The position numbers and the translations under genes are program-made. DNA of 64,000 bases, from sequence record PP216084, one strand, 5' to 3'. The DNA is from Escherichia phage vB_EcoS_HZ_ZJUN2. The notes beneath the pieces are model-generated. The model ran no database searches. It saw only the letters and a list, made by a program, of their open reading frames with translations, and was not told where the DNA came from. Positions 13,327 through 58,346 of this stretch are shown here, piece after piece. The stretch's first letter is position 1, and every line of letters begins with the position of its first letter.

Positions 13327-13356
13327 ATTATACTAGATTTCGAGAGAATTTAGCAA
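13327..13356 (-). promoter_or_regulatory. T5-type sigma70 promoter (minus strand), copy 2 of a tandem pair
   Basis: Reverse complement reads TTGCTA - 18 bp - TATAAT followed by ATATACATAAATT. Confidence 0.6.
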
Positions 13357-33677: not shown

Positions 33678-33706
33678 ATTATATATAAATTTTTGGCTGA
33701 AAGCAA
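33678..33706 (-). promoter_or_regulatory. T5-type promoter (minus strand)
   Basis: Reverse complement TTGCTT - 17 bp - TATAAT followed by AGATTTATAAATTTGATGGGAG. Confidence 0.6.
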
Positions 33707-40196: not shown

Positions 40197-40225
40197 TTGC
40201 TAATCGCTACCAGATTTGCTATAAT
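40197..40225 (+). promoter_or_regulatory. T5-type promoter for the HNH gene inserted between nrdA and nrdB
   Basis: TTGCTA - 17 bp - TATAAT. Confidence 0.65.
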
Positions 40226-43322: not shown

Positions 43323-43351
43323 TTGCTTACTGAGTGAAATTTAGATATAAT
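43323..43351 (+). promoter_or_regulatory. T5-type promoter
   Basis: TTGCTT - 17 bp - TATAAT followed by ATATTTTATAAATCGGAGA. Confidence 0.65.
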
Positions 43352-43899: not shown

Positions 43900-44375
43900 T
43901 GTCGGTTTTCCACATTTACACAGATGGTGCTTGTAAGTCTAATCCAGGTCCCGGTGCTTGGGGTTTTATTGTCTATGATGATAACGACGATCGTTTAGGT
44001 TCTAAATCTGGTTATAATCCTAAAACTACAAATAATGAGATGGAACTCACGGCTATTGTAGAGGCTCTACGTTGGTCAGTTAAAAAAGATAATAGACCAA
44101 TTGTTATCTATACTGATTCTGCTTATTGCAAAAATGGTATGGAAAGCTGGATGTTCTCTTGGCAAAGGAAAGGCTGGAAGAAAGCAGATGGTGAAGTTCC
44201 TCTTAATTTAGAACTTTGGCAGGAAGCATTTAAATTAACACAGCAGTATATCAACTTCCACAATACTAATCCTACCTTTATTAAGGTAAAAGGGCACTCA
44301 GGAATTAGTGGTAATGAAGCTGTAGATGCATTATGTAACACAGTTATTACTGAGCAAGAACTTGCCGAGATGTGA
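43899..44375 (+). CDS. rnh: ribonuclease H (RNase HI-like)
   Basis: YTDGACKSNPGPGAWG, NNEMELTAI, IYTDSAY, KGHSGISGNEAVDALC; start placed at the ATG overlapping the upstream stop. Confidence 0.8.
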   Translation: MSVFHIYTDGACKSNPGPGAWGFIVYDDNDDRLGSKSGYNPKTTNNEMELTAIVEALRWSVKKDNRPIVIYTDSAYCKNGMESWMFSWQRKGWKKADGEVPLNLELWQEAFKLTQQYINFHNTNPTFIKVKGHSGISGNEAVDALCNTVITEQELAEM

Positions 44376-44396
44376 TAAATAAATTAAAAAATTTTC

Positions 44397-44425
44397 TTGC
44401 TTAAAGCCCTCTAATTTAGTATAAT
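44397..44425 (+). promoter_or_regulatory. T5-type promoter bracketed by a 9-bp inverted repeat
   Basis: TTGCTT - 17 bp - TATAAT; AAAGCCCTC (44403-44411) and GAGGGCTTT (44444-44452) flank the -10 and RBS. Confidence 0.6.
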
Positions 44426-50026: not shown

Positions 50027-50527
50027 AGAACTGGATAACTGGTGCTTTTAACGTAAAAGCTTCCGAGGTTAGTTGCGCACTGCCTAAACCACGCGGTAGT
50101 TGGTTCCAGACTAACCAACCAGTCTGCTGAATAGTTTTATTACGATTTAACTATGTCCAGGCTAAAGAAGAACTTTAGAAGGTATTCTAGGTAGTGAAGT
50201 TTTTCCTCCATATCGGAGTAGTTTTTCAAGCTACCAACAAAGTGGGAAATGCTGACATGAGAGATGTCACTAATGGTGCACAATAGCACAGGTAATTCGC
50301 GATAACTCCTGTTGAGTAGCAGCAAAAGGCGGGAAGTCATGACCCCAAGCCTAACCGAGTCCTCAATATACCGCAGGACATAACCACTAAGTCACCCTGA
50401 CTTAAACTGGAAAATAATAGACGTTACTGTATTTTGTCTTGAAATACTTAATGAGTGAGACTTATGACTCTCCCGGTATCGTCTGTATTTTTAAGAGTTT
50501 TTACGAGAGTTCTTAAAAATACTTAAA

Positions 50528-51584: not shown

Positions 51585-51608
51585 TTCCCACACGTAATAT
51601 TCGAAGTA

Positions 51609-52503: not shown

Positions 52504-52581
52504 GGTTCTCAAGCTCATATGGTATGAGCACCCAGCTCATAACTGGAAGGTACGTAGGTTCGAATCCTCGGGGAGCCACCA
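52504..52581 (+). tRNA. tRNA-Met-like (anticodon CAT)
   Basis: Acceptor GGTTCTC/GGGAGCC, D-stem GCTC/GAGC, anticodon loop CTCATAA, CCA; T-stem has only 3 clean pairs. Confidence 0.55.
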
Positions 52582-52604: not shown

Positions 52605-53288
52605 ATGAGAACTGATATACTCGATAGAAAGGAAGAAATAACTCAGTGGATAGCTCAGGGAAAATCTAAAGCAGAGATAGCAAGAATGCTATCTTGTGCC
52701 TCGAATACTCTAGAAGCATATTTAGGAAAACTAGGGATAATAATTACTCCTACTAATAGGCAGCAGGATAATAAATATAAGTCTGCAACAGAGTATTTAT
52801 ATAATGGCAGTCCTATCTCTTCCTATAGACTAAAGAATAAAATTCTTAACGAGGGACTAAAACCACATAAATGTGAGGGTTGCGGACTAGAAAGCTGGTT
52901 AAATAAACCAATTCCCTTAGAACTCGAGCATAAAGATGGAGACCACTATAATAATGAGTGGGACAACTTAGCCCTCCTATGCCCAAATTGTCATGCACTA
53001 ACACCTACTCATGCAGGCAAAAATATTGGCAGGTATACAGAAAGGGTGGTAAATACATGTGCTATTTGTCATTGCGAAATTAGCCCAAAGGCAACGCACT
53101 GTAAATCATGTACCCCGAAAGAACTAACTATAAATCCAGATATTACTGCGGAGCAAATAGAGTATTGGGTATCTAAGTATTCCTGGGTTCGTGCCTCCAA
53201 AGAATTAGGATTATCTGACACGGGGTTAAGAAAAAGATATACGTCCTTAACAGGAAAAGATCCTAAAAGTATTAAGAAAAGTAGGTAG
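52605..53288 (+). CDS. HNH homing endonuclease with N-terminal HTH and shared C-terminal module
   Basis: CEGCG…ELEHKDGDHYNNEWDNLALLCPNCHA; C-terminal ELGLSDTGLRKRYTSL also present in 55476-56057. Confidence 0.7.
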   Translation: MRTDILDRKEEITQWIAQGKSKAEIARMLSCASNTLEAYLGKLGIIITPTNRQQDNKYKSATEYLYNGSPISSYRLKNKILNEGLKPHKCEGCGLESWLNKPIPLELEHKDGDHYNNEWDNLALLCPNCHALTPTHAGKNIGRYTERVVNTCAICHCEISPKATHCKSCTPKELTINPDITAEQIEYWVSKYSWVRASKELGLSDTGLRKRYTSLTGKDPKSIKKSR

Positions 53289-53714: not shown

Positions 53715-53744
53715 TTGCCTTTTGCTTTAAATTTCTGGTATAAT
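53715..53744 (+). promoter_or_regulatory. T5-type promoter
   Basis: TTGCCT - 18 bp - TATAAT followed by AGTTATATAAATTGATGAAGG. Confidence 0.6.
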
Positions 53745-53774
53745 AGTTATATAAATTGATGAAGGAGTTAACGA

Positions 53775-54050
53775 ATGCAAAATCGTGTTATAGCAACTGG
53801 TATTGAAAGTGCAATCTGTAAATCCTGGGAAGGCTGGGAAGGTGAGATTGAATGGCTTTATTTCTACGATGTAGAACTTCTGCCGGAAATTAAAGCTAAA
53901 TGTGTTGAAGCTGGCATGGCTCCAGATGCAAAAGCTGATATTGATATTTCAATGTCTGAACTTAAAGGTCGTGTAATTACTGTTAGTGATGGGGGCGAAG
54001 AAGTTTTCGAACTTCCATTCTCCTTAACTGTCGCTCCTAAGTTCGACTAA
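53775..54050 (+). CDS. hypothetical protein
   Basis: 91-aa ORF with GAAGGAG RBS. Confidence 0.5.
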   Translation: MQNRVIATGIESAICKSWEGWEGEIEWLYFYDVELLPEIKAKCVEAGMAPDAKADIDISMSELKGRVITVSDGGEEVFELPFSLTVAPKFD

Positions 54051-54086
54051 CTAATACAGCACTGAGCAAGTTCTTTAAAATTTGAC

Positions 54087-54115
54087 TTGCTCAGTGCCTT
54101 AAAACTTGGTATAAT
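54087..54115 (+). promoter_or_regulatory. T5-type promoter whose -35 lies in the 3' arm of a 12-bp hairpin (54059-54097)
   Basis: TTGCTC - 17 bp - TATAAT; inverted repeat AGCACTGAGCAAG…CTTGCTCAGTGC. Confidence 0.55.
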
Positions 54116-54249
54116 AGTTATCTAATTTGGAAAGTTCTTTTTAAGGTAGTTCTTACTTTAGCAGAGTAAACTTTCGGCAGATGGCGGCAGCCACTTTACC
54201 GATATTCCATAGTCAGTGCCGCAAACACTGGCTACCTTAAAGAGAATTT

Positions 54250-54337
54250 GGGCGTTTATTCCGTAAGTGGTAGCGGAGGGGAATGTAAATCCCTGGTCAT
54301 TGCGACTCGAGTGGTTCGACTCCATTAACGCCCACCA
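54250..54337 (+). tRNA. tRNA-Tyr (anticodon GTA), long variable arm
   Basis: Acceptor GGGCGTT/AACGCCC, anticodon stem GGGGA/TCCCT, loop ATGTAAA, CCA. Confidence 0.65.
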
Positions 54338-54345
54338 AATTTAAT

Positions 54346-54420
54346 GCACCTATCGTCTAATGGTTAGGACATCAGGATTTCAATCTGAGAATCGGAGTTC
54401 AATTCTCCGTGGGTGTACCA
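54346..54420 (+). tRNA. tRNA-Glu (anticodon TTC)
   Basis: Acceptor GCACCTA/TGGGTGT, anticodon loop ATTTCAA, T-arm CGGAG-TTCAATT-CTCCG, CCA. Confidence 0.65.
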
Positions 54421-54428
54421 ATTTCTGC

Positions 54429-54505
54429 ATTCCTAGAGTGTTACTGGACAGCATGTCGGTCTCCAAAACCGTACGGTCTAGGTTCGAGTCCTAGTAGGTT
54501 TGCCA
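54429..54505 (+). tRNA. tRNA-Trp (anticodon CCA), two U-U mismatches in the acceptor stem
   Basis: Anticodon loop CTCCAAA, T-arm CTAGG-TTCGAGT-CCTAG, CCA; acceptor ATTCCTA/TAGGTTT pairs at 5 of 7 positions. Confidence 0.5.
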
Positions 54506-54511
54506 AAATTT

Positions 54512-54586
54512 GCACCTTTAGCTGAGATGGATTAGCGCTTGCCTGAAGAGCTTGAAAGGTTGGATCGTTACCAACGGGGTGCACCA
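54512..54586 (+). tRNA. tRNA-Phe (anticodon GAA)
   Basis: Acceptor GCACCTT/GGGGTGC, D-stem GCTG/TAGC, anticodon loop CTGAAGA, CCA; anticodon stem has two U-U pairs, T-loop ATCGTTA is atypical. Confidence 0.55.
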
Positions 54587-54603
54587 AATTGAAGGAGCTG
54601 CTG

Positions 54604-56057: not shown

Positions 56058-56122
56058 TCTAACGGTTAGGATACTCCCCTGTCACGGGAGAGGTAGGGTT
56101 TCGATTACCCTTAGTACCGCCA
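56048..56122 (+). tRNA. tRNA-Asp (anticodon GTC)
   Basis: Acceptor GGTACTA/TAGTACC, anticodon stem CTCCC/GGGAG, loop CTGTCAC, T-arm AGGGT-TTCGATT-ACCCT, CCA; 5' end overlaps the last codons of the HNH gene. Confidence 0.7.
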
Positions 56123-58215: not shown

Positions 58216-58346
58216 TGGAATATGCCGGAATTGGTAGACGGGACTGCCGAATAGGTTTACTAGGAACATCCACTCCTAGAAATATACCTTAAAAGCGGTT
58301 GAGTTAAATGGTCTAACTCATGAAGGTTCAAGTCCTTCTATTCCTT
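58216..58346 (+). other. ~130-nt tRNA-like element (class-II-like with large insertion, no encoded CCA)
   Basis: 5' TGGAATA pairs at 6 of 7 positions with 3' TATTCCT; D-loop-like ATTGGTAGAC; variable-arm-like hairpin TGAGTT…AACTCA; canonical T-arm GAAGG-TTCAAGT-CCTTC. Confidence 0.3.

Follow-up and report, generated by a model that had tools for sequence, protein, structure and literature searches.

A conserved stem-loop overlapping the early promoter P14a in the tRNA region of a T5-like Escherichia phage

A stem-loop that overlaps an early promoter was examined in a 64,000-nucleotide stretch of DNA (the window) from Escherichia phage vB_EcoS_HZ_ZJUN2 (sequence record PP216084), a T5-like phage of the family Demerecviridae that is nearest to Tequintavirus. 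The element is a 39-nt inverted repeat on the + strand, and it is the upstream half of P14a, an early sigma-70 promoter of the T5 type. The promoter is already known; the conserved hairpin that overlaps it is unannotated in the T5 records. The stem follows a small gene, the homologue of T5.072, and would appear in RNA as a result of read-through from the preceding promoter, P15c. On this read-through RNA the hairpin is tentatively interpreted, with a probability of roughly 45%, as the 3' boundary of the T5.072 message, where it would act as a barrier to exonucleases and possibly as a weak attenuator.

A preliminary description of the site had put forward a 12-bp hairpin that lacks a T-run and contains the -35 hexamer of the next promoter in its 3' arm. 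The hairpin exists as described on each of these points, save that an 'A' written at the head of the 5' arm (54058) is unpaired. The perfect 12-bp arms, GCACTGAGCAAG (54059-54070, +) and CTTGCTCAGTGC (54086-54097, +), are separated by the 15-nt spacer ttctttaaaatttga (54071-54085, +), and the 5' arm can be extended to 54072 by a U-A and a U.G pair, such that the RNA is predicted to form a 14-bp stem, with six G-C pairs, closed by an 11-nt loop. Read 5' to 3', the order of elements is TAA, ctaataca, GCACTGAGCAAG, ttctttaaaatttga, CTTGCTCAGTGC, cttaaaacttgg, TATAAT and agttatc, and the tail immediately 3' of the stem, CTTAAAAC, has two T in 8 nt. The calculated free energy of the RNA hairpin is about -22 to -25 kcal/mol. 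Positions 54040-54115 fold with -24.9 kcal/mol and a z value of -5.69, none of 200 shuffled sequences being equally stable, and the hairpin persists in both the minimum free energy and the centroid folds of the entire P15c transcript. Perfect inverted repeats of at least 12 bp with loops of 3-20 nt occur at six loci in the window, compared with a mean of 0.1 in dinucleotide shuffles. The stem sequence is single-copy in the window. A 9-mer from the 5' arm, CTGAGCAAG, recurs at 44350 (44350-44403, +), close to a promoter at 44397, and this site was considered as a second copy; however, CTGAGCAAG pairs there with ttCTTGCTT over 9 bp only, across a 33-nt loop and within coding sequence, and the recurrence is probably due to chance, as many 9-mer matches being found in about 1 in 100 shuffles.

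The promoter half of the element is equally well defined. The -35 hexamer, TTGCTC (54087-54092, +), which lies within the 3' arm of the stem, is followed after 17 bp by an extended -10 element, TGG-TATAAT (54107-54115, +; TATAAT at 54110-54115, TG at -15/-14), and from the -10 spacing transcription is expected to start at ~54122. The hairpin loop also consists of promoter sequence, in that TTTAAAATTT (54074-54083) is the A/T tract of the -43 region and occupies the same register as in 26 other promoters of the window; indeed, all 27 T5-type promoters in the window have an A-tract in this register. The reported consensus of T5-like early promoters comprises TTGCTw, a spacer of 17-18 bp, TATAATA and an A-rich -43 region (AAAAATT) (PMC3326045), with which P14a agrees in its spacer, in TATAATA and in its AT-rich -43 region, and in the hexamer up to the last base, which is C as opposed to A or T. 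In T5 itself, the corresponding feature is entered as "promoter P14a" in NC_005859 and as "putative early promoter T5P19" in AY587007, and it has the same position as in the window, between T5.072 and tRNA-Tyr. The arms, -35, spacer and -10 of the homologous T5 segment (hairpin at NC_005859 35570-35608, complement) are identical to those of the window, and one loop base differs; neither NC_005859 nor AY587007 has a stem-loop or terminator annotation at P14a. The promoter call is made on the basis of the family consensus, the 27 such promoters in the window and the T5 annotation, and the next promoter of the preliminary description is thus a known early promoter of T5, the homologue of P14a/T5P19. 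A generic promoter scan of the window did not list P14a, because TTGCTC matches TTGACA at only three of six positions. A second hexamer in the loop region, TTGACT (54082-54087), was rejected as the true -35, since its distance to the -10 is 22 bp and it lacks conservation, being replaced by TCTGAC or TCTTAC in variants. Downstream of the -10, P14a has the discriminator AGTTA (54116-54120), as does P15c (53745-53749), in contrast to the ATATT or ATATA of most other promoters in the window. ATATT is the discriminator reported for T5 early promoters and has been linked to sensitivity to gpT5.026 (PMC7472727), and P14a and P15c may form a kinetic subclass characterised by AGTTA.

The transcription unit upstream of the hairpin begins with the P15c homologue (53715-53744, +), which has TTGCCT, an 18-bp spacer and TATAAT with TG, and is annotated in T5 as P15c/T5P20. 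It drives a 91-aa open reading frame (ORF; 53775-54050, +), the homologue of T5.072 (phrog_4551, function unknown), and the hairpin starts 8 nt past the stop codon of this gene. Since the stem precedes the expected P14a start, it would be transcribed solely by polymerases arriving from further upstream; P15c is the nearest upstream start and the source of hairpin-containing RNA, via read-through of T5.072. In phage DT571/2 (loci L024/L038), most of T5.072 has been deleted, such that P15c with the start codon is joined to the final ~16 codons, and both the hairpin (with A.C at the loop-closing pair) and P14a have been kept despite the deletion. A pattern scan of the + strand from 51608 to ~62100 revealed no convincing canonical terminator; the sole matches, at 56077, 58322 and 58550, have weak stems of 5-7 bp, and that at 56077 is inside tRNA-Asp. 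The same scan detected the classic terminator at 51608. Transcripts across ~51.6-62.1 kb must therefore be long read-throughs from multiple promoters, and it follows that message 3' ends in the tRNA region must come largely from processing.

A sequence of events can be proposed on this basis. In duplex DNA the segment would function as a promoter, with the A-tract in the 'loop', the -35 in the 3' arm and the TGn-extended -10 next to it, from which P14a would launch a structured leader RNA together with the tRNAs for Tyr, Glu, Trp and Phe. Polymerases from P15c would read through T5.072, and the 12-14 bp hairpin would fold in the RNA shortly after the stop codon has been passed. With a large loop and no U-tract, the hairpin would be expected to release polymerase inefficiently, and RNase P or RNase E would then excise the leader and tRNAs downstream, cleavages of this kind being an established origin of mRNA ends in tRNA-containing transcripts. 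Finally, 3' exonucleases would halt at the hairpin, which would thereby mark and protect the 3' end of the T5.072 message, and the hairpin may in addition pause or partly attenuate read-through into P14a. An influence of read-through transcription on P14a, as raised in the preliminary description, is possible. A stable hairpin without a U-tract directly after a stop codon is the expected form of an exonuclease barrier, and in this respect the element resembles the 3' stabiliser hairpins of the REP/BIME type and those between phage cistrons, which likewise end a cistron within a longer transcript and are expected to block PNPase and RNase II after endonucleolytic cleavage downstream. Unlike these, the P14a hairpin does not belong to a family of repeated elements, and its protective role is putative.

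Comparison of related phages suggests that the pairing matters. The ~1.6 kb around the hairpin has matches in 478 phage records at 80-98% identity, T5 among them, and a 53-nt query spanning the hairpin matched 422 phage records, 414 of them with at least 80% coverage; those inspected were all of Tequintavirus or Epseptimavirus. Approximately 30 distinct haplotypes were collected, in every one of which a 10-bp core stem is unbroken, and in the 25 haplotypes used for pairing statistics 97.4% of pair cells hold standard pairs, as opposed to 23-46% in slid-register controls. In KPP2018 and related sequences (GCATTGGGCAAG...CTTGCCCAATAC), and in a metagenome contig (GCATTGGGTAAG...CTTGCCCAATGC), two pairs are changed on both sides, from C-G to U-A and from A-U to G-C. 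Shigella phage SSP1 combines the changed 5' arm with the standard 3' arm, both positions then being G.U or U.G on the + strand, and Yersinia phage phiR2-01 (GCACTGGGCGAG) has two A-to-G changes in the 5' arm, both of which leave G.U pairs. An extra A in the 3' arm of atrejo and S133 produces a bulge and an 18-bp spacer; in vB_SenS-3 and falkor the same A is accompanied by a matching T in the 5' arm, restoring a perfect 13-bp stem of -23.7 kcal/mol. Indeed, the only changes seen in the interior of the 5' arm are ones that preserve pairing, and the interior variants are all G.U on the + strand. The mismatches observed lie near the base of the stem, at pair 2 (C.A or C.C), and next to the loop, at pair 12; in the loop-proximal extension, pair 14 is lost (U.U) where G38 has changed to T. 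Per-site diversity is 0.056 in the 5' arm, about half of the 0.121 in the adjacent noncoding flank. The compensated changes, the G.U intermediates and the 1-nt insertion that has a counterpart in the opposite arm together indicate that the pairing of the stem has probably been maintained, and the + strand G.U variants hint at RNA of the + strand as the molecule on which it matters. Scans of IMG/VR (28 stretches with the hairpin pattern) and of metagenomes (six contigs) revealed little diversity beyond that of the GenBank phages. The hairpin is absent beside the T5.072 homologues of Sugarlandvirus, where the next ORF follows directly with no intergenic spacer, and beside those of Thalassavirus (Vibrio), where a promoter follows without it; the hairpin is therefore confined to Markadamsvirinae.

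A number of observations weigh against the proposal that the hairpin protects the T5.072 message. The preference for wobble pairs on the + strand is not significant (five left-arm transitions versus one, where ~7:5 is expected), stem pairs 2 and 12 can be mismatched (C.A or A.C), compensatory events are few, with the compensated substitutions coming from one lineage, and the count of covarying pairs was matched in 20 of 500 trials of a shuffle control. Moreover, quasipalindrome template-switch mutation can yield apparently compensated changes in the absence of selection. The G.U intermediate in SSP1 may be a recombinant with its crossover in the loop: the upstream 308 nt of this phage are closest to the KPP2018 type (98.1-98.7% identity, versus 95.5-97.1% for others), and its 3' arm is of the T5 type. 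Equally, the low divergence across the whole promoter cassette could result from frequent recombination as opposed to selection on the stem. Other small ORFs of the same tRNA region have no such hairpin, and neither data on T5 transcript 3' ends or stability nor mention of the hairpin were found in the literature.

Several of these points would be accommodated if the stem had no selected function, the 5' arm being a quasipalindrome that arose by template switching against the constrained -35 and that now hitch-hikes within a cassette homogenised by recombination. Intramolecular template switching gives exactly such changes as the compensated indel and the simultaneous double substitution. Variation is unusually low from the 5' arm to about +14, relatives cease to be homologous directly beyond this stretch, and three upstream types are found in every combination with two or three leader types. 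The frequent mismatch at the stem base (pair 2), together with the T5.072 homologues of Sugarlandvirus and Thalassavirus that do without the hairpin, also fits such an origin. Nevertheless, the explanation is considered quite unlikely, given that the 10-bp core has stayed intact through ~30 haplotypes from 422 records and two genera whose T5.072 proteins are only ~75% identical, that interior changes in the 5' arm all preserve pairing, and that this GC-rich arm, which the promoter consensus does not need, is yet half as variable as its flank.

The preliminary description had also assumed that the hairpin ends the upstream transcript, and this part does not stand up well. As in intrinsic terminators, the stem is stable, contains several G-C pairs and comes just after a stop codon, and its length of 12-14 bp, with six G-C pairs, is within the 5-14 bp usual for GC-containing terminator stems. 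Conversely, its loop, which measures 11 nt when folded as RNA and 15 nt if counted from one perfect arm to the other, exceeds the usual 3-8 nt and a U-tract is missing, the tail scoring 1.11 compared with 2.2-4.6 for the terminator-like hairpins of the window; the terminator scan of the window did not detect the site. Tails are U-poor in all relatives examined (CTTAAAAC, CATAAAAC, TATAAAAC, TTCAAAAC). A canonical intrinsic terminator was rejected on account of the loop and the lack of a U-tract, and canonical terminators are used elsewhere in the genome, e.g. at 51608. A terminator on the minus strand was also discarded: the tail in that direction, TGTATTAGTT, is somewhat T-richer, but relatives do not conserve it and there is no sign of convergent transcription. 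Neither is the hairpin a typical RNase III site. Such sites consist of about two helical turns (at least 20 bp) of mostly double-stranded RNA; the stem here is at most 14 bp, and five weak outer pairs can be added only across two 8-nt internal-loop strands.

The closest known counterparts are stem-loops of T4-like phages. In the PeSLs ("promoter-early stem-loops") of RB49 and phi1, a stem-loop is joined to a strong early promoter of sigma-70-like type and to an AT-rich tract upstream; five subclasses are distinguished by the position of the stem, one of which overlaps the -35 box (PMC2839356). They are found after the stop codons of small ORFans, in hyperplastic regions. Two roles have been proposed for them, namely termination of transcription from upstream and the shuffling of modules, crossovers having been mapped to the loop (PMC2839356; PMC4122927); the phages in question are the T4-like RB49, phi1, PST and nt-1 (Arbiol et al. 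2010, PMC2839356; Comeau et al. 2014, PMC4122927). The P14a element shares with them a sigma-70-type early promoter, an AT-rich tract and a stable stem-loop, in the manner of the subclass that overlaps the -35; it shares also its setting, directly after the stop codon of a small ORF (here by 8 nt) in a plastic early region rich in ORFans and tRNAs, and the coincidence of the cassette with module junctions between related phages. Unlike the PeSLs, which belong to T4-type myoviruses, it occurs in a siphovirus of the Demerecviridae and has no sequence homology to them. The PeSL motif is repeated, rich in polyG/polyC and conserved over ~100 bp in many copies, as opposed to the single copy of the stem here; termination by the P14a hairpin appears improbable from its sequence, and any mini-circle or recombination activity of its stem is hypothetical. 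As the window belongs to the Demerecviridae, the hairpin is an analogue of the PeSLs and not a member of the group by descent. Hairpin and P14a together make up a compact cassette of promoter and stem-loop, a type known from T4-like phages, and no new regulatory principle is involved. The promoter part is found 27 times in the window, and in seven of these cases a hairpin of -10 kcal/mol or below is present in the interval that begins 70 nt before the -35 and reaches to the -10 box, its position varying.

If the hairpin were a true terminator or insulator of the PeSL kind, it would stop most read-through from P15c just inside P14a, shield the strong tRNA promoter from occlusion and separate the two units. 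The precedent in RB49 and phi1, where one early-promoter stem-loop cut lacZ expression about as much as rrnB T1 (PMC2839356), speaks for this possibility, as do the stability of the stem and the terminator-like hairpins that immediately precede promoters of the window at 40197, 63513, 30502(-) and 33706(-). It is judged unlikely, however, on account of the features already noted, i.e. a U-tract that is missing here (two T in the first 8 nt) and in relatives, a loop outside the usual range and the failure of the terminator scan to detect the site, and also of the use by this genome of canonical hairpin-plus-T-run sites where termination seems to be needed.

Control of P14a at the level of DNA was the further suggestion of the preliminary description, which had cruciform formation in mind; a dimeric protein bound to two 12-bp half-sites would be a variant of the same idea, the -35 and A-tract being hidden in either case. 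The repeat is indeed perfect and symmetric, with a DNA hairpin of -14.6 kcal/mol on each strand, and it covers exactly the -35 and the UP-like region. However, cruciform extrusion is known to be unfavourable with short arms and a large unpaired centre, and arms of 12-14 bp around 11-15 nt, with only the above energy per strand, disfavour it both energetically and kinetically; the cruciform is thus unlikely. Variants that are G.U on the + strand are A.C on the other, which breaks the symmetry that a cruciform or a palindromic operator would require. The half-site insertions of falkor and vB_SenS-3 would disrupt a protein site but not the stem, and the half-sites, 27 bp apart from centre to centre (~2.5 helical turns), would be on opposite faces of the helix. 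No LexA, CRP, TyrR or other known operator motif could be recognised by eye in the hairpin. Taken as a whole, control of this type is very improbable. A single-stranded DNA (ssDNA) promoter such as Frpo/ssi of the F plasmid, in which promoter elements likewise sit within hairpin-forming sequence, was also rejected, since both the -35 and the -10 of such promoters are in the folded stem, whereas only the -35 of P14a is, its -10 (54110-54115) being 12 nt outside. P14a should therefore need ordinary duplex DNA. An Rfam search of 48-64 kb and of 54040-54260 gave no above-threshold match to the hairpin or to the leader that follows it, only sub-threshold chance matches.

Downstream of P14a, the claim that the promoter heads the Tyr-Glu-Trp-Phe tRNA group needs a qualification: P14a does drive these tRNAs (54250-54587, +; Tyr, Glu and Trp detected by ARAGORN), but not directly, as a structured leader RNA of 118 nt (54132-54249, +), with an 18-bp closing stem and three hairpins, comes first. 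The 131-nt stretch 54122-54252 folds with -42.8 kcal/mol and a z value of -4.35. The leader transcribed from P14a in T5 differs from this 118-nt RNA. Homology among T5-like phages breaks 10-14 nt past the expected P14a start, and the cassette is succeeded by any of three different leaders, in free combination with three kinds of upstream gene end. The 118-nt leader is itself unannotated and is carried by only ~26 T5-like records, the others having two different leaders. Unrelated myoviruses (Phapecoctavirus) have homologues of it in their tRNA clusters, where it comes immediately behind tRNA-Ser. Covariation is seen at two pairs in a set of five sequences, and no Rfam match was obtained.

This arrangement raises the question of whether the element is mainly a recombination junction, i.e. 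a mobile regulatory cassette that shuffles the tRNA and leader modules downstream, which would be compatible with the other explanations. Promoter and stem-loop would then supply the conserved homology for exchange between phages, and possibly also a crossover site prone to hairpin formation. The three alternative leaders, the breakpoints clustered shortly past the start and the free combination with upstream types are all as such a junction would predict, SSP1 resembles the product of a crossover inside the loop, and PeSL crossovers in RB49 have been mapped to the loop (PMC2839356). As the main role of the hairpin it is nevertheless decidedly improbable: the promoter sequence alone supplies enough homology for exchange, such that a contribution of the stem is not indicated, and the stem is unique in the window and not repeated like the PeSLs. 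A bolder reading goes further. The hairpin would be a selected coupling device, in which the nascent P15c hairpin, or the hairpin-prone non-template strand, stalls polymerase over the -35 and -10 of P14a, so that upstream expression tunes transcription of the tRNA cluster; equivalently, T5-like phages would have independently evolved mobile cassettes in the style of PeSLs, whose stems direct module exchange in the tRNA region. This proposal is regarded as improbable.

The early promoters of T5 are classic examples of very strong promoters and are in wide use in expression vectors. In the tRNA region of T5, promoters, small ORFs, homing endonucleases and tRNAs form a mosaic array that is poor in terminators. 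A conserved stem-loop positioned on a promoter illustrates how tightly signals at the RNA and DNA levels are packed in such regions, and the hairpin is a simple case in which to study the formation of mRNA 3' ends where transcripts are defined by tRNA processing as opposed to termination. The idea of a promoter plus stem-loop cassette, known from T4-like phages, is also carried over to a phage family unrelated to them. Should the hairpin affect promoter output or recombination as well, it would be relevant to phage genome plasticity and to the design of insulated phage promoters; as it stands, the result is a modest gain in annotation.

Other composites of promoter and hairpin were noted in the window. 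At 33706(-), the 3' arm and U-tract of a 23-bp terminator run into the TTG of a -35; at 43323(+), the A/T region upstream forms a 20-bp AT-rich stem together with the spacer and -10 box; and at 13356(-), a 10-bp hairpin without a T tail spans -47 to -20. Terminator-like hairpins lie just upstream of the promoter at 40197(+), 63513(+) and 30502(-). Additionally, a perfect 12-bp AT-rich inverted repeat, GTATTTTTAAGA...TCTTAAAAATAC (50485-50522, +; 14-nt loop), ends 6 nt before tRNA-Arg and could be a processing or leader element.

The hairpin site is inside the tRNA cluster, the ORFs that flank it belong to PHROGs of unknown function, and relatives are mosaic in gene and tRNA content. ARAGORN detected 21 tRNAs in the window and the Rfam tRNA model two more, at 54512-54583 and 52504-52578 (+; 32.6 and 38.2 bits), which according to the T5 annotation are tRNA-Phe(GAA) and tRNA-Ile2/Met(CAU), respectively. 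A weaker tRNA-like match at 58278-58346 scored 23.9 bits, below the threshold. The cluster also contains an HNH homing endonuclease gene, the homologue of T5 hegA (52605-53288, +). Endonuclease insertions beside tRNA-Tyr vary among relatives (e.g. S133, S116 and GreteKellenberger), which is consistent with a mosaic, homing-driven turnover of the tRNA region.

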